Of a DNA stretch of 64,000 nt, positions 11,397-61,402 are shown piece by piece. The position numbers and the translations under genes were made by a program. Within the stretch, counting starts at the first letter, position 1; each line of letters begins with the position of its first letter. The notes under the pieces are model-generated. The model was not told the DNA's origin. It searched no databases and saw only the letters and a list, made by a program, of their open reading frames with translations. Source of the stretch: an uncultured Clostridia bacterium (GTDB lineage Bacteria; Bacillota; Clostridia; Christensenellales; Borkfalkiaceae); assembly GCA_944346655.1 (NCBI GenBank), contig CALVMP010000001.1:2599-66598 (forward strand), read 5' to 3'.

Positions 11397-11815
11397 AGAT
11401 TAGGGGATAGTGAATAGGGTCGAAAGATTTCTTCGGTCTGTCATCCTGCGCTGCGCTTGCGTGGAATGACAATATTATTTTAGAAAGACAATCCCCCCTT
11501 ATTCCCCCCTTTACACAAGGGGGGCTCGGTTGATAATTCTCAAGGCTCCCTTGTGTAAAGGGAGCTGTCGCGGAGCGACTGAGGGATTGTTCTTCCTTGG
11601 TCGACAGGTTTCTTCGGTCTGTCATCCTGAGCCTGTCGAAGGATCTCTTTATAAATGCTCGGTCGACTATTCCAATATTACTCACCACAATAAGACGAGC
11701 TGGATTTATTAAACCGCGCAAGATTGCGGAGCACGCATGCAACGTCACGTTGCCAATTCATGCAAGCGTAGCTTGTAATTTCATTTTTTGTTGCAACAAA
11801 AATTCTTAAATTCCC
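11385..11815. repeat. mosaic intergenic repeat block A (heptad array, duplicated 31-nt module, 15-bp inverted repeat, TCACCACAAT core, hairpin+AATTCAT units, 18-nt palindrome)
   Basis: Sub-modules recur elsewhere in the window (23597-23653, 39783-40043, 51453-51485). No credible coding potential. Details are in the findings. Confidence 0.8.
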
Positions 11816-45563: not shown

Positions 45564-47936
45564 ATGGCAGACATAAAGGACGTCAAAAAAATTCTTTCGC
45601 CCTCAAAACAGCCCGACAAAGCTTTCTGTCTCGACCTCCTCGACGAGGACAAGCAGAGGGCGTACGAAGAGGAGCATCTGTCCGCCGTGCTCAAAATGTT
45701 AAAGGCTATGTATGTCAGAAAGCACCTCGACGCAATAAAGGCTGCCAGGGAGGAGAGGGACGCGCTCGAGCGCGGCCCCGATTACAATGCCCAAAAATAC
45801 CGCCGCGTGCTCGAACTCAACGCGCTCATAAAGGAGAATAAAAAACTCGTCGACGGCTACAAGTGCTTTTTCGTCGAGCCCTACTTTGCCCGCATGGACC
45901 TCGTCGACGACAAGGACGGCTACAACAGCTACTATATCGGCAAAAAGGGGGACTACGGGCTGGAGATAGTCGACTGGCGCGCCCCGCTCGCGCGGCGGTA
46001 CTATCAGAAGTCCCAGCTCTCCTTTTCCATAAATCAGTTCGACTACAAGCTCATTCTGCGCCGCGCCCTCCGCGTGCACAACGGCAAGCTTTTAAGCTTT
46101 CAGAACGAATACCTCTGCCTCGACGACTATCTTTCAAAAGAGGAGATAGCGGGGCGCGACGAGTCGGTCATCTTCGACCCCTTCCTGAAGGATATTTTAA
46201 AGAGCCGCAAGGAAAAGCAGGAGATCTGCGACATAATCGAAACCATTCAGGAACAGCAGTACGAAATTATAACCGCGCCCGAAAGGGAGCAGTTTGTCGT
46301 GCAGGGCGTGGCAGGTTCGGGCAAGACCATGATAATGCTGCACAGGCTGTCCTACCTCATGTACAACAACGAGGACATAAAGCCCTCAAACGTGCTCGTC
46401 ATCACCCCGTCCGACTCCTTCAACGCCTTCATCGACGAACTCGCGCAGGTGCTCGAACTCGAAAAAGTAAAAACTTCCACTTTAGACAGTTATTTTATTG
46501 CGCTCTTAAAAAACCAGGGCGTCAATCTCGAAGGTAAAGTAGACTATTTTGCCCGGGTAAATCCCGACTATTTAAAGTATATCTACTCCCCCGCCTTCGC
46601 AAAGGACGTAAACAAAAAGCTTGAAAAGATATATTCGTCCGTCAGGGCAATGCTCTCAAAAGAGGTGGGCGGGGAGCTCATTGACCGCGTACTATGCTGC
46701 GCCGAACGGCAGACGGAGGAATACGAGCGCATAAAAAATTGTTCGCTCAGGGTAAGGCGGTGCGTGCTCGGCGAAATTAAGGAAAAGCCCGACGGAGGGC
46801 TGTACTACACAAAGCAGATGCGCCAGCTCTTCAACTGCCTTGCAGACGTAAAAGAATTCCTCGAGCTCAACGAAAGTTCCCCGCGCATGGACAACTATTT
46901 TTACTTTTACCGCCAGCTTTTATCCTTTTACAAATCGCTCCGCTTTATAAGAAGATACGGCGAAAAAATCTGCGAGGGCGCAACAGAGGATTTAAAGGCG
47001 CTCGAAACTACAGTCGACAAAGAAATTTTCGATTTAAAGCGCTATAAAATAAATATGGGCGGCAGGGAGGAATACACATACCCCGACAGAATCGAAAAGC
47101 GGGAGGAACTTAAAAAGGAGATTGCCTCGGCAATGTCCCGCGTCGAACGCATTCTGTCCGACTTTGCCGCCGCCTTCGACTTCGCGGAAGTTGCAAGGGG
47201 GGAGGGGTATCTCGTGCATATCGGCAAGTGCGAAGACACTGTCGACCTCGCCCGCTTCTTCTACCGCGAGATAGTAAAGCCCGTCAAGACCAGATATTCG
47301 GTATCCAACCGCGCCATGTACCGCGCCGACGTATTCGCGCTGTGCGCCGTGCTCTCCGCCCTCGGATACGATTTGACCCCCAAATATTCCTTTGTGTTCG
47401 TCGACGAAGCGCAGGACATATCCCCCGCCGAATACGACGTCGTAAAAAGGGTCAACGCCGAGGCGTGCCTCAATGTGTTCGGCGATTTAAAGCAGAATAT
47501 CACCCCCTTCCGCGGCGTTTCGGACTGGTCTCAGCTCGGCTACGGCGTGTACAACCTCAACCGCAACTACCGCAACACCAACCAGATTGTCGACTATGTG
47601 TCCTCCAACCTCGGCATAGACATGCAGCCGATAGGGCTTCCCGGCGACGAGGTCAGTGAAATTGCTCCCAAGTCGGTGGGCAGATATCTCTCGGACAAAA
47701 AGGGGCTCAGGGCGGTGATTACGTCCGAGGCAAACCTCGCCGCCTATACCCGCAAGGCGTACAACGTCGTCAGGGATACGGGGGTGATATCCAAAACAAA
47801 AATAAACATCATGACGGTATACGAAAGCAAGGGGCTTGAATTCACCGCCGTGGCTGTTGTTGACGGCGACATGACTGCAAACGAAAAATACATCGCCTAT
47901 ACCAGGGCATTAAAGGAGCTCGCCGTCGTCCGCTGA
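45564..47936 (+). CDS. helD: HelD-type UvrD-like helicase (RNA polymerase recycling ATPase)
   Basis: The N-terminal part has a coiled coil plus PYFARMDL...YYIGKKG...IVDWRAPLARRYYQ. Walker A is GVAGSGKTM. Also contains FVDEAQDIS, NYRNT and YESKGLEFTAV. Confidence 0.8.
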   Translation: MADIKDVKKILSPSKQPDKAFCLDLLDEDKQRAYEEEHLSAVLKMLKAMYVRKHLDAIKAAREERDALERGPDYNAQKYRRVLELNALIKENKKLVDGYKCFFVEPYFARMDLVDDKDGYNSYYIGKKGDYGLEIVDWRAPLARRYYQKSQLSFSINQFDYKLILRRALRVHNGKLLSFQNEYLCLDDYLSKEEIAGRDESVIFDPFLKDILKSRKEKQEICDIIETIQEQQYEIITAPEREQFVVQGVAGSGKTMIMLHRLSYLMYNNEDIKPSNVLVITPSDSFNAFIDELAQVLELEKVKTSTLDSYFIALLKNQGVNLEGKVDYFARVNPDYLKYIYSPAFAKDVNKKLEKIYSSVRAMLSKEVGGELIDRVLCCAERQTEEYERIKNCSLRVRRCVLGEIKEKPDGGLYYTKQMRQLFNCLADVKEFLELNESSPRMDNYFYFYRQLLSFYKSLRFIRRYGEKICEGATEDLKALETTVDKEIFDLKRYKINMGGREEYTYPDRIEKREELKKEIASAMSRVERILSDFAAAFDFAEVARGEGYLVHIGKCEDTVDLARFFYREIVKPVKTRYSVSNRAMYRADVFALCAVLSALGYDLTPKYSFVFVDEAQDISPAEYDVVKRVNAEACLNVFGDLKQNITPFRGVSDWSQLGYGVYNLNRNYRNTNQIVDYVSSNLGIDMQPIGLPGDEVSEIAPKSVGRYLSDKKGLRAVITSEANLAAYTRKAYNVVRDTGVISKTKINIMTVYESKGLEFTAVAVVDGDMTANEKYIAYTRALKELAVVR

Positions 47937-51410: not shown

Positions 51411-51438
51411 AAAATCCCCCTCCAAGGGGGGTTTTTTT
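51411..51438 (+). terminator. rho-independent terminator
   Basis: Stem CCCCC / GGGGG(G) with loop TCCAA, flanked by A-rich (AAAAAAT) and T7 runs. Confidence 0.7.
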
Positions 51439-51552: not shown

Positions 51553-51581
51553 TTGAATATTGCATTTTTTTGTGGTATAAT
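51553..51581 (+). promoter_or_regulatory. near-consensus extended -10 promoter of the helicase-comEC-holA unit
   Basis: TTGAAT at 51553-51558, a 17-nt spacer, then TGG-TATAAT at 51573-51581. Confidence 0.7.
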
Positions 51582-51617: not shown

Positions 51618-54600
51618 ATGGCAGCCAACAACAAAAAGACTCCGCGGCTCGATTTGATTGAGCTTGAAGGCGAACTTTTAAATTACGTTTCGTATGCAAC
51701 CTATTACAACCGCATACCGCTCTTTACAACCCTCCGCGTCTATAACAACGGCGACGAGGATGTAGAAAACGTAGTCATAGCCCTCTCTTCGGACAGTTCT
51801 TTAGTGCTGCCCGCAAACGTCACGCTGCCCCTCGTGCCGGCGCATGCCAGTACGGAGGTAAAGTCTCCCGCCCTGTTAAATCCCAAATATCTTGCCGATT
51901 TAAAGGAACAGGAGCCCGCAAAAGTATTCGTAAAAGTCACGTGCGGCAAAAAAGAGATCTGTTCGCTCGAAACCGGACTGACAGCCCTGCCCATGGACAT
52001 GTGGTCGGGCATTCTGGGCTCGCCCGAAATGCTCTCCACCCACGTCCGTCCCAAGCTGTCCGACTGCCAGAAGGTGCTTGCCGAAGCGGGACTCCAGCTC
52101 AAAACGTGGGGCTATTCGCAGGAGTGGTCGGGCTATGCCGGCAACGACAAAAACTCCGTCCGCGCCGCGTTCGCCTCGGTGTTCTCGGCAATCCGCAACC
52201 TCAACATTGAAAGGGGGGAGGAGGGCGATCTTTCCCTGCCCGTGCTTGTGGGCAACGTTGCAGAGATCGTCGGGGAACGCACTGCCACCCCCGTGGGAAT
52301 GGCTGCGTTCGCCTGCTCCTGCCTCGAGGCGGCAAGGCTTCACCCCGTAATAGTGCTCGGCAAAAACAAACTCGGCGTGGGCGTGTGGCTGTACGAAAGC
52401 TGTTTTACAACTACCCTCCAGGACGACATGTCCGTCATAGAACGCTACATTGCCGACGGCGTAAACAATCTCGCCATAGTCGACGTCGACGACCTCTTCG
52501 CGCACAAAAACGCCAGCTTCACCACCGCCGCTTCGCACTTCTCCTCGGCGCTTGCCGCGGGCAGGTTCGAAGCCCTTCTCGACATAAAGCGCTGCCGCAT
52601 CGGCGGCGTGTTCCCCATGCCCATAAAGGTAAAGGCTGGCGCCTCTTACGAAATTCTCGGCGACAAGCAGTTCTCCTATGAGGAGAGACCGAAGGACATA
52701 ATCGACGCCGACAAGCTCAACCTCGGCAGGGCGGCTTCCAAGGACAAGAACTGGGAAAGGCGCCTTTTAGACCTCTCTTTAAAGAACAACCTGCTCTCGT
52801 TCAGGTTCCGCAAGGACGTAATACACCTTCTCACCTACGACGCCGCGGCGTTCCTCGAAAGGGTGAAGGACAGGGAAAAACTTACAATCCACGCCAACGC
52901 CAACCCCATTGAGGGCGCCCTCTACTTCGGCGGCGGGGCAAAGCTGAGCACGCTCGCCGAACTCATAAATATTGAACTCGGTCAGGGCATTGTCCGCGCA
53001 TATGCCCGCACGGAATCGCTGCTCGAAAGCGCCTCCACGCTCATCCGCAAGGCGCGTTCGACGCAGGAGGAGGTGGGCGCAAACACCCTGTTTATGGCAA
53101 TCGGTTTTTTAAAGTGGAAGGAACAGTCCGAAAGGGAGTTCAAATACGCCCCCCTGGTGCTCCTGCCCGTCACTTTGAAAAAGACCAAAACCCAGGGCAT
53201 AGAGGTCGAACTTTCGGACGAGTTCAGGGTCAACACCACCCTCCTCGAATTTTTAAAAGTGGAGTTCGGCATAGACATAAGGGGGCTCGAATCGACAGAC
53301 CTCACCCCCTCCGAAGTGCTCGCCGTATTCCGCGCAAAAACTTCCAATATGAAGGGCTGGCTCGTCCATGACGACATATATATCGCCCAGTTCACCTTTG
53401 CCCGCTATGCCATGTGGGCGGACATAAGGGCGAACATGCCCAAGTATAAAAACAACGCGCTCATCGCCAGCCTGCTTACAAACACCAACAAGCTGGGCGA
53501 AAACAGGCTTGCCGGAGTAAACGAGGACGACGGCGACCCCGAAGAGATTTTAACGCCCCTGCCCTGCGACTCCTCGCAGTACGCGGCAATCTCCGAAAGC
53601 GCGAAGGGCACCACCTTTGTTTTGCACGGTCCTCCCGGCACGGGCAAGAGCCAGACGATTACAAACATCATAGCCAACGCCGTCGACTCGGGCAAGCGCG
53701 TACTTTTCGTCGCCGAAAAGCAGGCGGCGCTCCAGGTCGTAAAAAAGCGCCTCGACGAGATAGGAATAGGCGAATTCTGTCTCGAGCTCCACTCGGGCAA
53801 GTCCGCGCAGAAGGGGGAGATTGTACGCTCGATCGAGTCCACCCTCGCCTTAAAGGACGACTATAGCGGCGGCGAAAAATTTTCGGCGGACGCCCACAAG
53901 ATAGTCGAGGACAGGGCAAGGCTCAAAGCGCCCCTTTCGGCTCTGCACAAAAAGCGCCGCCTCGGCGTGTCCGTCTACGAGGGCATACTCTATTATCTCC
54001 AGAACAAGAACGCCCCCGAGCTCGTAAATATTGAATCTACCTTCTACGACGGTCTCACCGCCAAAAAGCTCTCCGAGTACGAAAGCATGCTCTTAACCGC
54101 CCAGGCGGCAGCCAAGGAGTGCGGCGGCGTGTACCGCTCGCCCTTCTCGGGGGTAAACATATACATCTGCGACGAAAAGGTGCAGGCTTCGGTGCTGTGC
54201 GCGGCTGAGGTCGTGCTCGCCGAGCTCAAGCATCTCAAAAATTACCTCGGGCTCTTCCTCGATACATTCAACCAGAAGATGTCGGCATTTACGCCCAAAA
54301 AACTCGAAAACCTCGTCGAAATCTGCACCGTGTTAAAGGAGGACAAGCTCAAAAACTTCTTCAGCTGCAACGAGGCTGATTTCTACGTCTTCTTCAACGC
54401 CAATCTCCGCTACGACGCAGAGGTGCGCAACTGGCTGACCCGCTTCAAATCCCTCCCCGACCTCGGCAAACTTGCCGACGATATCGAAAGCGAAATAGAA
54501 AACTGGGGCGAAAACTACCGCTCTTCGCGCACGCTGCTTGCGGTAATAAAGCGCATCAACCGCTGCGCCCGCACGCCCATGGCGGAGAGCGAGGAGCTGG

Positions 54601-57251
54601 AGTGGATAAAACGCGCGTACGAGATAGAACAGGCGCGCAACAAAATTCTCGGCTTTACCAACCTCTCGTCGGCGTTCGTCGGCATCGGCGGCGGCATAAA
54701 CGACAGAAAGAGGGAGGAGTACATGCAGCCCATCTATGCCCTCCACCAGAGCTGCGCCTCGGTGTTCATGGACTACAACGGCGACGCCTTCAACAGCGTG
54801 TGCGCCAAGGCGGCGGACGGCTATTTAAAGCCCCTCTTAACCGGGCTCATAACTGCCGCAGTGTCCTTTATCAGGGCGTGCGACCACTTCAACGCCGTAA
54901 TCAAGTGCGATAAAAACCTCGTCGGAGACGACGACGTGTTCGACTACTACAACTCCAAGTGCTCGGCGCTCATCGACAATATCGACATGCTCCCTGCGTG
55001 GTGCATGTACAAGGCCACGGCAAAAAAGCTCAACGACTGCGGTCTTACCTTTATCACCGACGCCATGGAGTCGGGTCAGATCAGCGGCGAAAAAATCCTC
55101 TCCGCCTTCCGCAAAAACGTCTACCGCAACTTCATTCAGACCAACATACCCGCCGACGAAAATCTTTCGTCCTTCTCGGCGGCGCTGCTCGACGAAACCG
55201 CACGCAACTTTTCGCAGGTGCTGGACGAGTTCGCCCGTCTCACGCGCGAAAAGATACGCCACGACCTCATATCCCGTCTGCCCTCATCCTCGACGGAGGG
55301 GCCGCTCGCGCTCGAGCTCATGGCGTTCAACAGGCAGGTAAAGGGCAACATGCGCGGCTTCAACCTGCGCTCGATTTTTACCGACTTCCCCGAACTTCTG
55401 AAGGTCGTCGCGCCCTGCCTTTTAATGAGTCCTTCAACCGTGTCGCAGTATCTGCCCGCCGACCCCGAACTCTTCGACATCGTCATCTTCGACGAGGCGT
55501 CCCAGATGCCTACCTGCGAGGCGGTCCCCTCCTTAGCCCGCGCCAAGAGCGCCATAATCGTCGGCGACCCCAAGCAGATGCCGCCCACTTCCTTCTTCGT
55601 CACAATGGACACCGACGAGGAAAATCTCGAGGCGGAAGATCTCGAATCCGTCCTCGACGACTGTCTCGCCTTAGGCATTCCCGAAAAGCACTTAAACTGG
55701 CACTACCGCTCCAAGCACGAAAGCCTCATTGCCTTTTCGAATATCATGTACTATTCGTCCAGGCTGTGCACCTTCCCCTCGCCCGACGCCATGGACAGCC
55801 GCGTAAAACTGCACTTTGTCGAAGGCGGCGTGTACGAGCGCGGCGGCGCCAAGATAAACAAGCAGGAGGCGGAAGAACTCGTAAACGCCGTCATAGCGCG
55901 GCTCAAAGACCCTGCTCTTCGGCACTCGTCCTTAGGCGTTGTCACCTTCTCCACGCCCCAGCAGGTGTATATCGAAAAACTGCTCTCAAAGCGCATAACC
56001 GCCCTCGGGCTCGAGGAGGCGGCGTATGAAAGGGAGGAGCCGCTGTTTGTCAAAAACCTTGAAAACGTCCAGGGCGACGAAAGGGACGTAATAATGTTCT
56101 CCGTCTGCTACGGTCCCGACGCGGCTGGCAGAATTTCTTTAAACTTCGGACCTTTAAACCAGCTCGGCGGCTGGCGCCGTCTCAACGTCGCCGTCTCGAG
56201 GGCGAGGGAGGAGATGATAATTTTCTCTTCCATGCGCTATTCCATGATAGATCTCTCGCGCACAACTTCCCGCGGCGTGGCAGGTCTGAAGGCGTTCCTC
56301 GAATTTGCCGAAAAGGGCAGAACGACCATCGCCCAGCCCTCCGACGAGGTGATAATAAACCGCAACGGCATAGGGCGCTTTGTCGCGGCGGAACTCTCGC
56401 AGTACGGCTATGAATGCCGCACCGACGTAGGCGTCTCCGACTTCAAGATAGACGTCGCCGTCGTCGACCCCAAAAACAAGCACAACTTTATCCTCGCCAT
56501 TTTATGCGACGGCACGACCGACTTCTCCGTAAAGGACCGCTCGGTCATGCAGATTCAAACGTTAAAGCGCAACAACTGGAATGTAATAAGGCTGTACGCC
56601 ATAAATTTCTTCAACAATCCCAAGCGCGAAATAAAGAAGATAAAGGAATTCCTCGATAAACTCACCTCGACCGAAAAGGTGACTGCCACGGCTTACAAAA
56701 AGACCTACCGCGCGGCAAAGGTCGAGGAGTGCCCTCTCGATTCGGCTGCCGTCTTAAGCGGCGGGCACGACGGCGAAATCATAAAAATTATCCGCGCCGT
56801 AGTAACTGCCGAGGAGCCCATCTCTTCCGACTTCCTCATAAAGCGCACCCTATCGCTTTGCGGCATCACTAAGTACGGCACCAAGCTCGAAAACAAAATT
56901 GCTTCCCTCGCCGCGGCGTGCTCCTTCAAGAGCGTAAACATGCTGGATAAAACCTACTATTACAGGAACGAAAAGTACCTCTCCTACGACAGATACCGCG
57001 TCGAAAACGGCACCATGCTCCGCACCTCCGACAGCGACTTCACCCCGTGGGACGTAATATCGCTCGTAAAGGCGATTCTCCTCGACAAGGTCTCCATGTA
57101 TTCCGACGAACTCGTCGTGGCTGTCGTAAAGGGGCTGGGTCTCGTGCGCGTTTCGGACAAAATGACGGCTTTCGTAAACGCCTGCATAGACGAGGGCGTG
57201 AACACCGGGCTGTTTATCCGCTCCATATCCGACAGGATATCCTTAAGCTGA
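51618..57251 (+). CDS. giant DUF4011-type SF1 (Upf1/DNA2-like) helicase with Vsr/DUF559-like PD-(D/E)xK block and DUF3320-like tail
   Basis: DUF4011-type strings: NWERRLLDLSLKNNLLSFRFRK and TLFMAIGFLKWKE...YAPLVLLPV. Helicase motifs: GPPGTGKSQT, VIFDEASQMP, IVGDPKQMPPT, HYRSKHESLI, VQGDERDVIMFS and RLNVAVSRAREEM. Nuclease-like block: DFKIDVAVVD...ILAILCDG...NWNVIRLY. ATG 51618 follows AAAGG by 7 nt. Confidence 0.85.
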   Translation: MAANNKKTPRLDLIELEGELLNYVSYATYYNRIPLFTTLRVYNNGDEDVENVVIALSSDSSLVLPANVTLPLVPAHASTEVKSPALLNPKYLADLKEQEPAKVFVKVTCGKKEICSLETGLTALPMDMWSGILGSPEMLSTHVRPKLSDCQKVLAEAGLQLKTWGYSQEWSGYAGNDKNSVRAAFASVFSAIRNLNIERGEEGDLSLPVLVGNVAEIVGERTATPVGMAAFACSCLEAARLHPVIVLGKNKLGVGVWLYESCFTTTLQDDMSVIERYIADGVNNLAIVDVDDLFAHKNASFTTAASHFSSALAAGRFEALLDIKRCRIGGVFPMPIKVKAGASYEILGDKQFSYEERPKDIIDADKLNLGRAASKDKNWERRLLDLSLKNNLLSFRFRKDVIHLLTYDAAAFLERVKDREKLTIHANANPIEGALYFGGGAKLSTLAELINIELGQGIVRAYARTESLLESASTLIRKARSTQEEVGANTLFMAIGFLKWKEQSEREFKYAPLVLLPVTLKKTKTQGIEVELSDEFRVNTTLLEFLKVEFGIDIRGLESTDLTPSEVLAVFRAKTSNMKGWLVHDDIYIAQFTFARYAMWADIRANMPKYKNNALIASLLTNTNKLGENRLAGVNEDDGDPEEILTPLPCDSSQYAAISESAKGTTFVLHGPPGTGKSQTITNIIANAVDSGKRVLFVAEKQAALQVVKKRLDEIGIGEFCLELHSGKSAQKGEIVRSIESTLALKDDYSGGEKFSADAHKIVEDRARLKAPLSALHKKRRLGVSVYEGILYYLQNKNAPELVNIESTFYDGLTAKKLSEYESMLLTAQAAAKECGGVYRSPFSGVNIYICDEKVQASVLCAAEVVLAELKHLKNYLGLFLDTFNQKMSAFTPKKLENLVEICTVLKEDKLKNFFSCNEADFYVFFNANLRYDAEVRNWLTRFKSLPDLGKLADDIESEIENWGENYRSSRTLLAVIKRINRCARTPMAESEELEWIKRAYEIEQARNKILGFTNLSSAFVGIGGGINDRKREEYMQPIYALHQSCASVFMDYNGDAFNSVCAKAADGYLKPLLTGLITAAVSFIRACDHFNAVIKCDKNLVGDDDVFDYYNSKCSALIDNIDMLPAWCMYKATAKKLNDCGLTFITDAMESGQISGEKILSAFRKNVYRNFIQTNIPADENLSSFSAALLDETARNFSQVLDEFARLTREKIRHDLISRLPSSSTEGPLALELMAFNRQVKGNMRGFNLRSIFTDFPELLKVVAPCLLMSPSTVSQYLPADPELFDIVIFDEASQMPTCEAVPSLARAKSAIIVGDPKQMPPTSFFVTMDTDEENLEAEDLESVLDDCLALGIPEKHLNWHYRSKHESLIAFSNIMYYSSRLCTFPSPDAMDSRVKLHFVEGGVYERGGAKINKQEAEELVNAVIARLKDPALRHSSLGVVTFSTPQQVYIEKLLSKRITALGLEEAAYEREEPLFVKNLENVQGDERDVIMFSVCYGPDAAGRISLNFGPLNQLGGWRRLNVAVSRAREEMIIFSSMRYSMIDLSRTTSRGVAGLKAFLEFAEKGRTTIAQPSDEVIINRNGIGRFVAAELSQYGYECRTDVGVSDFKIDVAVVDPKNKHNFILAILCDGTTDFSVKDRSVMQIQTLKRNNWNVIRLYAINFFNNPKREIKKIKEFLDKLTSTEKVTATAYKKTYRAAKVEECPLDSAAVLSGGHDGEIIKIIRAVVTAEEPISSDFLIKRTLSLCGITKYGTKLENKIASLAAACSFKSVNMLDKTYYYRNEKYLSYDRYRVENGTMLRTSDSDFTPWDVISLVKAILLDKVSMYSDELVVAVVKGLGLVRVSDKMTAFVNACIDEGVNTGLFIRSISDRISLS

Positions 57252-57252
57252 C

Positions 57253-59325
57253 ATGAAGGGCAGGTTGTTCAACTTCAGGCTGCCCTTCTTTTCGGCGCTC
57301 AGTTTAACGGCGGGCATAGCGGCGGTCTATGCCTTTGCCCACTTTGGCTGGGACTTTTTCTATCTGCTTGCGGTCGTGCCATGCACAGCCGCAATTTTTA
57401 TATCGCTCTCGGTTCTGTCATGCAAAAAGGGCACGCTTTTAAAGTGCGCGCTTTTAGCCGCGTTTTTTGCGTTGGGCTGTATATATGCCTCGATCATCTT
57501 CAATAATCTCTCAATTCCTCCCGCCGTCTCTGGCAGGGTCGCCTCCGTTACGGGAGTGGTGGAGGACGTGCTCGTCACCTCCTCGGGCAGACCGTACGTA
57601 ATTCTCTCCTCAGCCGCGGCTGACGGCGTTCCCCTTGCGGGAAAGATAGCCGTCTATCTCTCCGACGAGGCGGGCGGAGCCCTCAGTCCCGGCTATAAGG
57701 TTTCTCTCTTCGGGTACGTCGGGCACTACGACCTGTTCTCTTACGGTTCCCTCAACTACCGCGTGATAAACGGCATTACCAACTATGCCGAAGCCTACGG
57801 TTCGGTCGAATTTGCCTACGGTTTTTCGCTCTTCGGCAGCGTGCGCAAAGCCGTTTACGATGTGCTTTACGCCAACCTCGACGGCGAGACGGCTGCCGTC
57901 GCCTATGCCATGATAACGGGCAGCACACAGGATGTCTCCGCGCAGACTTTAAACGCCTTCCGCTACGGCGGCGTCGCCCACATTTTCGCCGTCTCCGGGC
58001 TCAATATCACCGTTTTGTACGTTTCGGTGCTCTTTCTTTTACGCCTTTTCCGCATGCCCAAGGTTCCCGCGGCGGCAATCTCGTGTGCGGTTATAGCGTT
58101 TTATACGGGGCTGTGCGGCTTTACGCTCTCGGCGGTCAGGGCGGCTGTAATGTGCGGCGTCGCGGCAATCTCTTCGCTCGCGCGCAAAAAGTACGACGGA
58201 CTCAACTCGCTTTCCGTCGCCGTAATCATAATCCTGCTCGTAAATCCATTAAACCTCTTCGACGTCGGCTTCATTCTCTCCGTGTCGGCAATGCTCGGCA
58301 TAATCTTCCTTTCGCACAATCTCAACAACGTCTTAATAAAGCTGCCCGCCAAAATCCGTGCAAACATTACAATGTCGGTTGCCTCCCAAATCTCCACGCT
58401 GCCAGCGCTCATGCTCACCTTCGGTTACATCTCGGGCGCCGGGCTCATTCTCAATATCGCAGTACTGCCCGTGCTCACCTTTTTGTATGTCTTTCTCTTC
58501 GCCTGCGTCGTGCTCTGCCTCATAGTGCCGCCCCTTTCCTCAGTCGTTCTGCCCGTTGCCGCCCTGCCGTTGCAGGCTGTTGTAAACTTTTTTGTCTCCT
58601 GCGGGTTCGAACGCTCCCTCATCTCAGGCTTCGGCGGCGCGTGGCTGCCTTTCGTCCTCCTGCTGTTCGTCGCCGCATTGTCCGATAAATTCAACTTCAG
58701 CCGCTCCGTCCGCGGGGTTCTTGCTTTGATAAGCGTTTGCGCATTTGCTCTCGGTTGTTTTCTTTCGGGCTATATGCGCGGCGGGCGTACGCAGATAACC
58801 GCCGGCGGCTGCTACGGCGGCGGCATGGTGCTCTTCCGCTCGCAAACTGCAACTACGCTCGTCATCTCCTCCCAATCCTATCCCGGCGGCTCGGCTGATT
58901 TCGTCTCGGTCTACGCTCCGGAGGGGGTGGATAATCTGATTATTCTCGGCGGCGACGACGCCGTATCCTATTATTATTCTTGCGGAGTGGACGCGGAAAA
59001 TGTATACCTTTCTCCCGCGAACATAAACCTCGGCGGTGCGGACGGGGCAAACCTGTACTTTGAGCAAAATTTTGAATCGGGCGGCACATATTATGCGTTC
59101 AACGACTCTTATACTCTCACTGTACACACGGAGGGTGTCAGCGTATGCATATCGTTCGGCGACCGCAACGGGGCGGAGGGGTGCGACCTTCTTATAACCG
59201 ACGGCGCTCTCTGCCCCGCAAACACCGTCGTTTATTTCGGGGAGAGGGGAGGAGAGTTCAGCCTCTATGCCAAAGGACGCTTGCAATTTGCCGCCGAAGG
59301 TGGTAAACTTATACTCGAAGGATAA
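57253..59325 (+). CDS. comEC: ComEC/Rec2 family DNA internalisation channel protein (no recognisable metallo-beta-lactamase motif)
   Basis: Has an N-terminal OB-like region and the competence domain (GVAHIFAVSGLNITVLYV) with many TM helices. The C-terminal 200 aa lack HxHxDH. The ATG lies 1 nt after the upstream stop. Confidence 0.8.
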   Translation: MKGRLFNFRLPFFSALSLTAGIAAVYAFAHFGWDFFYLLAVVPCTAAIFISLSVLSCKKGTLLKCALLAAFFALGCIYASIIFNNLSIPPAVSGRVASVTGVVEDVLVTSSGRPYVILSSAAADGVPLAGKIAVYLSDEAGGALSPGYKVSLFGYVGHYDLFSYGSLNYRVINGITNYAEAYGSVEFAYGFSLFGSVRKAVYDVLYANLDGETAAVAYAMITGSTQDVSAQTLNAFRYGGVAHIFAVSGLNITVLYVSVLFLLRLFRMPKVPAAAISCAVIAFYTGLCGFTLSAVRAAVMCGVAAISSLARKKYDGLNSLSVAVIIILLVNPLNLFDVGFILSVSAMLGIIFLSHNLNNVLIKLPAKIRANITMSVASQISTLPALMLTFGYISGAGLILNIAVLPVLTFLYVFLFACVVLCLIVPPLSSVVLPVAALPLQAVVNFFVSCGFERSLISGFGGAWLPFVLLLFVAALSDKFNFSRSVRGVLALISVCAFALGCFLSGYMRGGRTQITAGGCYGGGMVLFRSQTATTLVISSQSYPGGSADFVSVYAPEGVDNLIILGGDDAVSYYYSCGVDAENVYLSPANINLGGADGANLYFEQNFESGGTYYAFNDSYTLTVHTEGVSVCISFGDRNGAEGCDLLITDGALCPANTVVYFGERGGEFSLYAKGRLQFAAEGGKLILEG

Positions 59326-59330
59326 AGGTC

Positions 59331-60302
59331 ATGAAATATACAGAACTCAAAGCCGACATTTCAAACGGCGACCGCCGCATATATCTCTTCGAGGGAGAGG
59401 ACGCGTATTTTTCCGAACACGGGGAAGAGCAGGTGAAAAACGCCTTTTTAAGCCTGCCCGAACTCAACTACGCCGCCTTCGACGGGGCTAATTTAAAGGG
59501 CGGTGCGCTCGCCTCCTTAACCTCCGCAATGTCCGCCTGTCCCTTTATGAGCGAAAAGCGCATAATAAGGGTGGGGGAGTTTTATCCCTCCGAGGCGGAC
59601 TACGAAAAATATTTAAAGACCGCCTTCGAAAACTGCCCCGACACCACAATACTCATAATCGTCAACCGCTCGGCGGGCAAGGGCGCACAGCTCAAGCGCA
59701 AAAAGTGCATAACGTACGTCGACTGTTCGCACGCCGACGAGGACACGGTCAACCGCTGGGTTTACGCCACGCTAAAAAGGGCGGGCGTCGCCTCCGACGC
59801 GCAGGCGTGCAGGCTGGTCGCGCAGTACTGCCTGTGCGACATGTCGAGGGTGGCAGGCGAAACGAATAAACTCATTCTCTCCAAAATCAACCCTGTAACC
59901 GTGCAGACCGTCGACGATATCGTCTACAAGGACGCCGACTACCGCATATACGAGATGACCGACGCCGTAGCCGTAAAAAATTATTCGCGCTTCATAACAA
60001 TACTTTCCGAGCTTTCGCAAAAGTCGGCAGAAAGACCCGCTCTCGTTTCGGCGCTCTACAGGTATTTTAAAAACCTGCTCATTATCCTTACCTCCGACGA
60101 GGACAGAGCTTCTCTCGCTTCAAAGCTCAAAATGCCCGAATTCGCCCTTAAGCGTTCTTACGAAAGGGCGCGTTCCTTCGGCAGGGACAGGCTGCTTGCC
60201 TATACTTCTGCGCTGTATAATTTTTCTGCGGACATGCGCTCGGGCAAGCTTTCGCCCGACGGAGCCTTTTTTTCGTCGCTCGCCGCCATTTTGTTTGCAT
60301 AA
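59331..60302 (+). CDS. holA: DNA polymerase III delta subunit
   Basis: Starts YLFEGEDAYF. Length is 323 aa. It sits immediately after comEC, the canonical position in Firmicutes. Confidence 0.7.
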   Translation: MKYTELKADISNGDRRIYLFEGEDAYFSEHGEEQVKNAFLSLPELNYAAFDGANLKGGALASLTSAMSACPFMSEKRIIRVGEFYPSEADYEKYLKTAFENCPDTTILIIVNRSAGKGAQLKRKKCITYVDCSHADEDTVNRWVYATLKRAGVASDAQACRLVAQYCLCDMSRVAGETNKLILSKINPVTVQTVDDIVYKDADYRIYEMTDAVAVKNYSRFITILSELSQKSAERPALVSALYRYFKNLLIILTSDEDRASLASKLKMPEFALKRSYERARSFGRDRLLAYTSALYNFSADMRSGKLSPDGAFFSSLAAILFA

Positions 60303-60406
60303 TTTTTAATTTTTGCCGTCAAAGCGGCGGTAAACGCTTTATTTTTTGCTGCGAAAATAATATAATAGTTTACAACACACTTTAATTTTAGCGGGGTGTA
60401 CAGATT

Positions 60407-61285: not shown

Positions 61286-61402
61286 ATGAAAAAATTCCAA
61301 AAGTTCTTAAAGGATGTCTTTACAAAAAATATCGACATAAAAATTCTCGCGCTCGTCATTGCGGCAATCGCCGTCTTATTCATAAACATTCCCAACATGT
61401 AA
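61286..61402 (+). CDS. 38-aa TM mini-ORF resembling only the N-terminal anchor of CdaR/YbbR (possible remnant)
   Basis: AAGGAG (61270-61275) lies 10 nt before the ATG. Translation: MKKFQKFLKDVFTKNIDIKILALVIAAIAVLFINIPNM. It occupies the cdaR position after cdaA. Confidence 0.45.
   Translation: MKKFQKFLKDVFTKNIDIKILALVIAAIAVLFINIPNM

Follow-up and report, generated by a model that had tools for sequence, protein, structure and literature searches.

The giant helicase gene, comEC and holA that follow one another in the genome of an uncultured Clostridia bacterium are best explained, with a probability of roughly two in three, as an inherited core gene order in which the spacer between the first two genes has been lost locally, the ComEC being an ordinary one with a dead C-terminal domain (CTD) and the helicase a member of the ProA/Hhe/PDC-S37 family. 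The three genes would then represent a vertically inherited stretch of the core genome of Coproplasma-like gut Clostridia, and not a dedicated helicase-ComEC system.

Organization of the locus

The window, as we call the whole stretch of DNA analysed here, comprises 64,000 nt from a member of the Borkfalkiaceae (assembly GCA_944346655.1, contig CALVMP010000001.1, positions 2,599-66,598, forward strand). Its relevant features, in window coordinates, are:

45564-47936, + strand: gene for a HelD-like UvrD-family helicase of 790 aa (Pfam; about 105-107 bits with the NCBIfam HelD/HelR models, under their cutoffs)
51416-51431, + strand: intrinsic terminator-like hairpin and T-run (6-bp stem with 5 GC pairs, then TTTTTTT), closing the upstream ABC-transporter unit
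51553-51581, + strand: sigma-70-type promoter of the giant helicase gene (TTGAAT, 17 nt, TG-n-TATAAT; 10/12 matches, extended -10)
51618-57251, + strand: gene for the giant Upf1-like SF1 helicase, 1877 aa from the ATG (Pfam, NCBIfam, PADLOC, orthologues)
57249-57255, + strand: stop-start junction between helicase gene and comEC, TGA-C-ATG (read from the sequence)
57253-59325, + strand: comEC, 690 aa (Pfam, family profile against ComEC cryo-EM chains, AlphaFold2 model)
58750-59322, + strand: ComEC CTD, residues 500-690, a predicted shortened metallo-beta-lactamase (MBL) fold without catalytic residues (domain model and fold search)
59331-60302, + strand: holA, DNA polymerase III delta subunit (155.6 bits with NCBIfam TIGR01128, whose cutoff is 80; Pfam)
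60312-60340, + strand: terminator-like hairpins 3' of holA (9-bp stem at 60312-60334; a second hairpin at 60321-60340, then ATTTTTT)

The Pfam and NCBIfam matches bear out the identities that the initial annotation had given to the helicase, comEC and holA. The listed helicase ORF began at TTG 51612, the most likely start being the ATG at 51618, which is preceded by an AAAGGA Shine-Dalgarno (SD) sequence. The helicase promoter is preserved in 9 relatives, with no change in either hexamer or in the TG, the flanks having diverged. The proposal that the three genes form one unit behind this promoter is plausible on sequence grounds: a simple scan finds no further promoter-like site on the + strand until 59288. 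The hairpins at 60312-60340 are the probable end of this unit. One terminator-like site (57446-57463) lies within comEC, in a scan that returned 21 such sites in total against 14.2 expected by chance.

The junction between the helicase gene and comEC

The spacing at both junctions is as first described. A single base, C (57252), parts the helicase TGA (57249-57251) from the comEC ATG (57253), with no SD between them, and the ATG of holA (59331), with AAAGG immediately 5' of it, lies 5 nt past the end of comEC (59325). The sole purine-rich match 5' of comEC is AGGA at 57234-57237, 15 nt ahead of the ATG; its duplex with the anti-SD has a calculated energy of -4.1 kcal/mol at -15, as against -8 to -12 kcal/mol at -4 to -9 for many other genes of the window, and because this pairing is both weak and distant, comEC is effectively without an SD. 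The sequence thus has the hallmarks of a translationally coupled pair (stop and start within a few nt, no independent SD for comEC), and comEC is probably translated at a low level through termination-reinitiation, by ribosomes that end on the helicase ORF and would re-initiate at comEC.

A precedent is found in B. subtilis, where comEC is reported to be translationally coupled to comEB, to have a poor or absent ribosome-binding site (RBS) of its own and to need translation of the upstream ORF (bioRxiv 10.1101/2020.12.30.424838). The B. subtilis comE operon (comEA-comEB-comEC, then holA) and the window share a comEC followed by holA and a comEC whose RBS is poor or absent. They differ, however, in that the upstream ORF in the window is a helicase gene of 1877 codons, that the unit contains neither comEA nor comEB, and that only part of the clade shows the coupling.

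Indeed, as a general trait the coupling does not hold. Among the relatives compared, a gap between the two genes as short as -1 to 5 nt is peculiar to the closest subclade; it widens to 8-25 nt in the subclade after that, to 45-120 nt further out and to about 300-400 nt in Borkfalkia-like genomes. Every spacer of 45-120 nt folds as a hairpin (-18 to -40 kcal/mol), some of them followed by T-runs, and this strongly structured spacer would have been lost in the subclade of the window. The same spacers provide an argument against a merely inherited order: they leave little room for a separate comEC promoter, and comEC may everywhere need read-through from the helicase promoter.

The giant helicase is a conserved core gene

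The encoded protein comprises an N-terminal region, DUF4011, an AAA_11/AAA_12 core, an MTES_1575 nuclease-like domain and DUF3320 (Pfam). It matches the NCBIfam model ProA (NF058533) with 1449.7 bits against a cutoff of 1500 (residues 27-1694, profile positions 1-1716 of 1903), and is accordingly a close ProA homologue that falls short of the equivalog; Hhe (NF042953) gives 675 bits, and the PADLOC model PDC-S37 943.6 bits (profile positions 11-1534 of 1550). By sequence it is a ProA/Hhe/PDC-S37-type Upf1-like SF1 helicase with a Vsr/DUF559-like nuclease-fold domain, from a family labelled anti-phage. The Upf1-like SF1 motifs are intact (GPPGTGKS, FDEASQ, VGDPKQ and RRLNVAVSRAR, including Walker A, the Walker B DEAS and the arginine finger), and these motifs and the residues of the nuclease domain are invariant in an alignment of 8 sequences that includes a Bacteroides relative with 32% identity. 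Since neither a signal peptide nor a membrane segment was seen on inspection of the sequence, we take the protein to be cytoplasmic. By homology, its most likely task is to survey or process nucleic acids inside the cell, which may amount to foreign-DNA restriction or some other form of genome maintenance.

ProA, Hhe and PDC-S37 are single-gene anti-phage DUF4011 helicases whose architecture the window helicase shares along nearly its full length. In contrast to them, the window helicase scores under the ProA cutoff and is a syntenic, slowly evolving core gene, not the cargo of an island or plasmid. Orthologues of about 1875 aa, with 50-88% identity, are present at full length in 80 species-level genomes. 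Across the same loci of the nearest clade, identity to the window proteins is 80-88% for the helicase, 77-85% for the HelD-like protein, 85-92% for CdaA, 62-75% for HolA and 48-61% for ComEC. The surroundings in the window are of the housekeeping kind (lepA, hemW, guaA, ppa, cdaA and an aspartate-kinase-type gene), and the orthologues are likewise syntenic in housekeeping surroundings, with none of the patchy distribution or the defence-island or mobile location of a defence cassette. These sequence comparisons mark the helicase as a core gene that evolves slowly, lies among housekeeping genes and has a conserved promoter of its own. We also considered a recent insertion of the helicase, as part of a defence island, between the ABC transporter and comEC, and rejected it because it is the helicase that is conserved, the variable insert being the genes for the glycosyltransferase and the ABC transporter that lie between it and the HelD-like gene.

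Such constraint raises the possibility that the helicase is not immune at all, but the lineage's housekeeping enzyme of genome or transcript maintenance, with comEC as a bystander. It would act together with the upstream HelD-like helicase, of the RNA-polymerase recycling kind, would be expressed along with the replication gene holA, and might clear R-loops or transcription or replication complexes that have stalled. The HelD-like gene is in fact its steadiest neighbour across the clade, lying 55-4400 nt ahead of it in most loci whose flank is long enough, and the identity of the HelD-like protein tracks that of the helicase from locus to locus. A level of conservation that matches CdaA and the HelD-like protein and is above that of HolA, a conserved and near-consensus promoter, the lack of a defence island around the gene, a helicase core that is Upf1/IGHMBP2-like (NCBIfam) and the presence of a DUF4011 gene in the core genome of all P. 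aeruginosa isolates (PMC10250203) point the same way. Against it stand the anti-phage labels of the best family matches and the genes found next to distant relatives: of the neighbours sampled there, about half are of the defence type (a type I R subunit, an Eco57I-like methylase, reverse transcriptases, an OLD/TOPRIM ATPase and an SMC/AAA_21 protein). Homologues also occur on conjugative plasmids, 609 plasmid records having a match. We consider this alternative unlikely, yet deserving of attention. Two observations count against our preferred explanation: the score lies just under the ProA cutoff, and strong conservation in housekeeping surroundings is unusual for a defence gene. A helicase of the ProA/Hhe type that is a strongly constrained core gene is, in any case, a caution against equating every match to a defence model with immunity.

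The gene order occurs in a single, vertically related clade

The adjacency of helicase and comEC is not unique to the genome of the window: about 45 related species-level genomes share it, and Coproplasma- and Borkfalkia-like genomes retain the order helicase-comEC-holA-cdaA. Outside these, no independent recurrence in unrelated lineages was found: a ComEC HMM run on 80 distant helicase loci (814 kb) gave 0 of 80, with 62 matches in the control on the earlier loci. Among the loci surveyed, the adjacency is thus restricted to one clade of vertical descent. Nor is the order obligatory nearer by. About 14 loci whose 6-kb downstream flank is complete have the helicase but neither comEC nor holA, two annotated loci of broken synteny carrying instead dapB/dapA/asd or a DAO/Rieske gene 3' of it; a sister lineage keeps the helicase at about 65% identity with no comEC downstream, and in one genome (locus L091) holA follows the helicase directly, without comEC. 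The suggestion that the coupled helicase processes or polices incoming DNA finds no support here, the adjacency being limited to one clade, broken in the sister lineage and absent from the 80 distant relatives. What argues against simple inheritance is the reach of the adjacency, which extends from Coproplasma as far as Borkfalkia and holds at helicase identities as low as about 50%, a long survival for a neutral order that could stem from shared regulation. If inherited order and local loss of a spacer are the explanation, the general lesson of the locus is small.

ComEC carries a dead MBL-fold domain

It had been noted that this ComEC lacks an MBL domain with the HxHxDH motif. The motif is indeed absent, but the domain is not: the models indicate a degenerate, shortened MBL fold. 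A motif search found no HxHxD[HN] in the window ComEC or in any of the 120 homologues listed; the last 210 residues contain one histidine, the CTD has no histidine conserved across the family, and IILGGDD occupies the motif-2 position in place of HxHxDH. Pfam returns DUF4131 (weak) and Competence only, with no match to Lactamase_B; TIGR00361, the ComEC_Rec2 equivalog, gives 92.2 bits against a cutoff of 190 and covers profile positions 97-349 only; and when the PDB sequences were searched for an intact MBL domain with the ComEC family profile, the matches to ComEC structures stopped at about position 456. However, a model of the CTD by itself (pLDDT 88.4) has MBL-fold proteins as all of its best 50 PDB fold matches, a clean result compared with the fold search of the full-length protein, where E-values are weak and MBL and OB matches are mixed. 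According to this model, the CTD is a shortened MBL fold that has lost all its metal-binding histidines, and the protein is not a canonical three-domain ComEC with an active MBL domain (HxHxDH and the other metal ligands), although the fold is kept.

ComECs without a recognisable MBL domain are already known (PMC6299819, PMC8579336). Only 52.3% of proteins with a Competence domain have a Lactamase_B match (PMC6299819), and the 'DC' profile of that survey (Pimentel & Zhang 2018), with OB (DUF4131) and Competence, no Lactamase_B and no nuclease motif, corresponds to the window ComEC. Similarly, 'almost half' of ComECs lack the CTD, while in S. pneumoniae it is kept, possibly inactive, and may guide DNA should it prove so (PMC8579336); in the modelled window ComEC it is kept and dead. 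What sets the latter apart is a shortened MBL fold of about 190 residues that is conserved throughout a large clostridial family and has no metal-binding histidine left; our literature search found no description of it for this family. Our ComEC would be an ordinary member of this family, its CTD probably having a structural or DNA-guiding role only. Some of the 'MBL-less' ComECs of domain surveys may, by extension, be pseudo-enzyme forms and not truncations.

These properties bear on the idea that the helicase-nuclease is a partner of ComEC at the cytoplasmic face of the channel, where it would unwind, process or police DNA, compensating for the dead nuclease or acting as a checkpoint of transformation. 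How the non-transforming strand is dealt with in ComECs that have no CTD is recognised as an open question (PMC8579336), the anti-phage labels make an action on foreign DNA plausible, and the order is conserved in the 45 or so genomes, from two candidate genera, with the SD-less stop-start junction in the subclade of the window. Firmicutes do possess a cytoplasmic helicase-type ATPase that works with the ComEC channel, in the ComEC-ComFA-ComFC import complex (PMC12663950), but this known motor is ComFA, a small ssDNA-binding ATPase acting with ComFC, whereas the window protein is an Upf1-like helicase-nuclease of 1877 aa. Several further observations oppose a partnership: (i) the dead MBL domain is shared by many ComECs with no helicase nearby, this type of ComEC standing alone in loci L012, L095 and L096, and its distribution is much wider than that of the adjacency, so that no correlation exists between the two traits. 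(ii) The nuclease domain of canonical ComEC is extracellular (PMC8579336), and a helicase without an export signal, as judged by inspection, could not substitute for it. (iii) ComEC evolves much faster than the helicase, with no sign of co-evolution. (iv) In most of the clade the two genes are set apart by spacers with hairpins, comEC is missing downstream of the helicase in the sister lineage and in the genome with holA alone, and it is absent from the distant relatives and from the one plasmid region inspected. We regard the partnership as highly improbable. Our literature search found no link between DUF4011 and ComEC. If the partnership were real, a defence-type helicase would be connected with DNA uptake and natural transformation, and this would bear on the fate of the non-transforming strand where ComEC has no active nuclease. 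The least probable of the readings is that a core ProA-like helicase-nuclease has been recruited in Coproplasma- and Borkfalkia-like genomes as a gatekeeper, co-expressed with ComEC and screening or processing the incoming single strands.

The channel and OB parts of ComEC

The remainder of the protein has the expected layout, with N-terminal membrane helices, an OB fold (DUF4131), the Competence channel domain and one membrane helix ahead of the CTD. Competence (PF03772) matches residues 220-474 with 175.1 bits and establishes the channel domain, and TIGR00360 gives 81.4 bits against a cutoff of 36.5. The family profile finds the ComEC cryo-EM chains 30bt_A and 9vc6_A (E-values of 1e-39 and 1e-34) over the OB and membrane parts. 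For the OB fold itself the Pfam score (PF13567) is 24.3 bits, under the cutoff of 31.6, and we accept it with the support of the AlphaFold2 model of the full protein (pLDDT 84.6), which predicts a beta-barrel at residues 95-188 whose fold matches include OB domains of aminoacyl-tRNA synthetases. A change from SGLH to SGLN in the subclade with the tight junction was considered as a sign of a decaying ComEC and rejected: Asn also occupies this position in the characterised ComEC of Moorella, and H243 (Moorella H254), the histidine of the channel, is invariant.

Gene content and signals at the helicase-comEC junction

The positions that the initial annotation gave for the helicase, comEC and holA agree with the ORF listing and also with the raw sequence. 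The helicase and ComEC are known kinds of protein: ComEC carries a Competence domain and a weak DUF4131 match, and the long ORF combines DUF4011, AAA_11/AAA_12, MTES_1575 and DUF3320 (Pfam); HolA scores above the TIGR01128 cutoff. The helicase reaches 1449.7 bits against the NCBIfam model 'anti-phage protein ProA' (below its cutoff of 1500), 675 bits against NCBIfam Hhe and 943.6 bits against the PADLOC candidate PDC-S37. When aligned even with a 32%-identical Bacteroides relative, its helicase motifs stay invariant, as do several acidic and basic residues in its nuclease-like domain. The remaining window genes are housekeeping: EF-G-like, lepA, hemW, guaA, RlmB-like methyltransferase, ppa, HelD-like helicase, glycosyltransferase, ABC transporter, cdaA, DUF1015 and aspartate-kinase-type genes.

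Features of the region
45564-47936 (+), HelD-like UvrD-family helicase, 790 aa (also in two relatives' loci, L030 3493-5892 and L065 3566-5935)
51416-51431, terminator directly before the helicase promoter
51553-51581, predicted sigma-70-type promoter with extended -10, just 3' of that terminator
57249-57251 (+), helicase stop TGA (ORF listing and raw sequence)
57253-59325 (+), comEC (ORF listing and raw sequence)
60312-60340, terminator-like hairpins 3' of holA

The promoter at 51553-51581 is almost certainly real, since both hexamers and the TG are invariant in nine relatives whose flanking DNA has diverged. ATG 51618, with AAAGGA six bases 5', is the most likely start of the helicase; the resulting protein has 1877 residues, as called in relatives. 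In the raw sequence a single nucleotide separates the helicase TGA from the comEC ATG at 57253, and the ORF listing places the holA start at 59331, after the comEC end at 59325. The closest Shine-Dalgarno-like element before comEC, AGGA, lies 15 nt 5' of the start; the duplex predicted with the 16S rRNA tail reaches -4.1 kcal/mol at too long a spacing, compared with -8 to -12 kcal/mol at positions -4 to -9 for many genes in the window. Within the 3' end of comEC, just before holA, a promoter-like site (59288-59315, +, TTGCCG-16-TATACT, 9/12) might give the essential holA its own transcription start, though with nearly no leader.

A metallo-beta-lactamase fold without ligands in ComEC

As the initial annotation had claimed, HxHxD[HN] is absent from the window ComEC, and it is present in none of the 120 listed homologues searched; the last 210 residues hold one histidine, unconserved. 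When a profile built from 58 family members is compared with solved ComEC structures, the match is confined to the OB and membrane parts. AlphaFold2 models the full-length protein confidently (pLDDT 84.6, pTM 0.84), and residues 500-690 modelled alone reach a higher pLDDT (88.4). All of the best 50 PDB fold matches of this segment are metallo-beta-lactamase (MBL)-fold proteins, including RNase J, glyoxalase II, Cas14, RNase Z, INTS11 and NDM-1 (E-values from 2.6e-4, probability ~1, query-normalised TM-scores 0.41-0.48), and at the HxHxDH strand-loop position the family reads IILGG(E/D)xC. On these models, the C-terminal domain therefore keeps the MBL fold in shortened form but none of its metal ligands. 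The earlier description 'MBL-less' is thus right about the catalytic motif but not about the fold, 'MBL-dead' being the better term; no intact MBL domain was found. The confident models and the fold matches rule out a linker or junk sequence.

That ComEC can lack a recognisable MBL domain is already in the literature: only 52.3% of 4,935 proteins with a Competence domain also match Lactamase_B, and among 51 strains known to be transformable, 14 show the DUF4131+Competence profile (PMC6299819); Silale et al. note almost half of ComECs to be without such a domain (PMC8579336). The same authors suggest that the possibly inactive pneumococcal domain might be kept as a DNA guide (PMC8579336).

At ComEC residue 251 (58003-58005) the window has SGLN instead of the family-wide SGLH, as do its nine closest aligned homologues (10/58), which are those with at least 52% ComEC identity; the four with examined loci have helicase-comEC junctions of at most 3 nt. 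The change is probably harmless, because the characterised Moorella ComEC likewise has Asn there.

Gene order is kept within one clade

The order helicase-comEC-holA-cdaA-DUF1015-kinase recurs, without exception, around the ComEC homologues with 60, 55, 52, 43 and 42% identity. Species-representative genomes, when scanned, yielded 80 full-length orthologues of the helicase, every one in a MAG labelled Coproplasma, Borkfalkia or 'Christensenella'; about 45 of these loci keep the window's order, including Borkfalkia at ~51% helicase identity, so the adjacency is not peculiar to this genome. After the helicase, comEC, holA and cdaA are all missing from about 14 loci whose 6-kb downstream flank is complete; those without downstream comEC are mostly mouse-gut 'Christensenella sp.' MAGs (~65% helicase identity). 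Two annotated broken loci have dapB/dapA/asd (opposite strand) or a DAO/Rieske gene instead. The DAO/Rieske genes of two relatives (L065 11714-13156, +; L095 6457-7914, -) are orthologues with 59% identity; the first follows the helicase, the second stands divergently beside a lone comEC, which hints that a rearrangement (inversion) split the neighbourhood. In another relative, L091, holA follows the helicase after ~40 nt (11629-11670), and the 6 kb past the helicase yielded no comEC. Dead-MBL-type ComECs at 36-38% identity stand alone, without the helicase.

Beyond the clade the adjacency disappears: a ComEC HMM found no ComEC at 80 distant helicase loci from metagenomes (27-61% identity, 814 kb in total; 33 with at least 2.5 kb downstream and 47 with at least 2.5 kb upstream), and it picked up 62 ComEC ORFs when run on the earlier relatives' loci. 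Defence-type genes make up five of ten sampled neighbours of the distant relatives, and plasmids of Klebsiella, Raoultella and Rhizobium carry homologues as well. A reverse-transcriptase gene lies immediately 3' of a DUF4011/DUF3320 helicase, on the opposite strand, in Bacteroides finegoldii (L094 13846-14976, -) and in a metagenome contig (L106 11882-13051, -), and may be a recurring partner. The former record (NZ_OY725931.1, 'plasmid 29') was deposited as a Bacteroides plasmid, but with its rpsA, glutamine synthetase and glycoside hydrolase genes it looks like a chromosomal fragment.

The tight junction is a local feature

Distance from the helicase stop to the comEC start
Closest subclade (80-88% helicase identity): -1 to 5 nt, except one locus, L018, with 309 nt
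Next group: 8-25 nt
More distant Coproplasma: 45-120 nt
Borkfalkia-like: mostly ~270-400 nt

Every folded spacer of at least 45 nt contains a strong GC-rich hairpin (-18 to -40 kcal/mol), in several cases followed by T-runs as in intrinsic terminators. Such spacers (for example L010 9942-10000, L043 9524-9574 and L057 8231-8275) leave little room afterwards for a separate comEC promoter. On the simplest reading of these sequences, the helicase gene would ancestrally have ended with its own hairpin, and the window's subclade would later have lost the spacer. Because the gap is tight only near the window while the wider spacers elsewhere carry hairpins, the coupling appears to be recent and local to this subclade. 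It resembles the comEB-comEC coupling of B. subtilis, as described in a preprint (bioRxiv 10.1101/2020.12.30.424838).

We favour, with a probability of about two in three, inherited gene order plus local spacer loss and no dedicated partnership. The headline proposal, that the coupled helicase works with ComEC in DNA uptake, is not supported: the adjacency is clade-bound, none of the 80 distant relatives shares it, and the loci compared gave no indication of co-evolution or independent association. Since published work places the nuclease domain of canonical ComEC outside the cell (PMC8579336) and the helicase has, on inspection, neither signal peptide nor membrane segment, it cannot stand in for that domain. 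A real functional link between helicase and ComEC, for instance at the cytoplasmic exit of the channel, is very improbable. In Firmicutes ComFA/ComFC take up that position (PMC12663950). The useful refinements are that a large ComEC family retains a dead-MBL remnant and that a ProA-like helicase behaves as a core gene, neither likely to surprise a specialist much.

The helicase behaves as a core gene

Helicase identity to the window protein tracks that of housekeeping neighbours and is far above that of ComEC; in one relative, L007, the values are 86% for the helicase, 83% for HelD-like, 89% for CdaA, 72% for HolA and 52% for ComEC. The HelD-like gene is its most constant neighbour, upstream in most loci with enough flank, 55-4400 nt away in most related genomes and with identity that tracks the helicase; as a neighbour it is steadier than comEC, so the true conserved pair may be these two helicases. 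The window's subclade has a glycosyltransferase and an ABC transporter inserted in the interval that separates them. Island-borne defence genes do not usually show such behaviour.

Immune homology and core-gene behaviour thus leave two readings of function. By homology the helicase would serve immune surveillance; that it instead performs housekeeping nucleic-acid maintenance, and is not immune, is the less probable reading, at perhaps one chance in four judged independently of the gene-order question, and draws on the tracking identities, the stable HelD-like neighbour and the fact that all P. aeruginosa isolates have a DUF4011 gene in their core genome (PMC10250203).

Between cdaA and the DUF1015 gene lies a conserved 38-aa ORF (61286-61402, +; MKKFQKFLKDVFTKNIDIKILALVIAAIAVLFINIPNM) with one hydrophobic helix, near-identical in the relative L001 and called as a gene in several others. 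It presumably resembles the N-terminal membrane anchor of CdaR, whose gene normally comes after cdaA.
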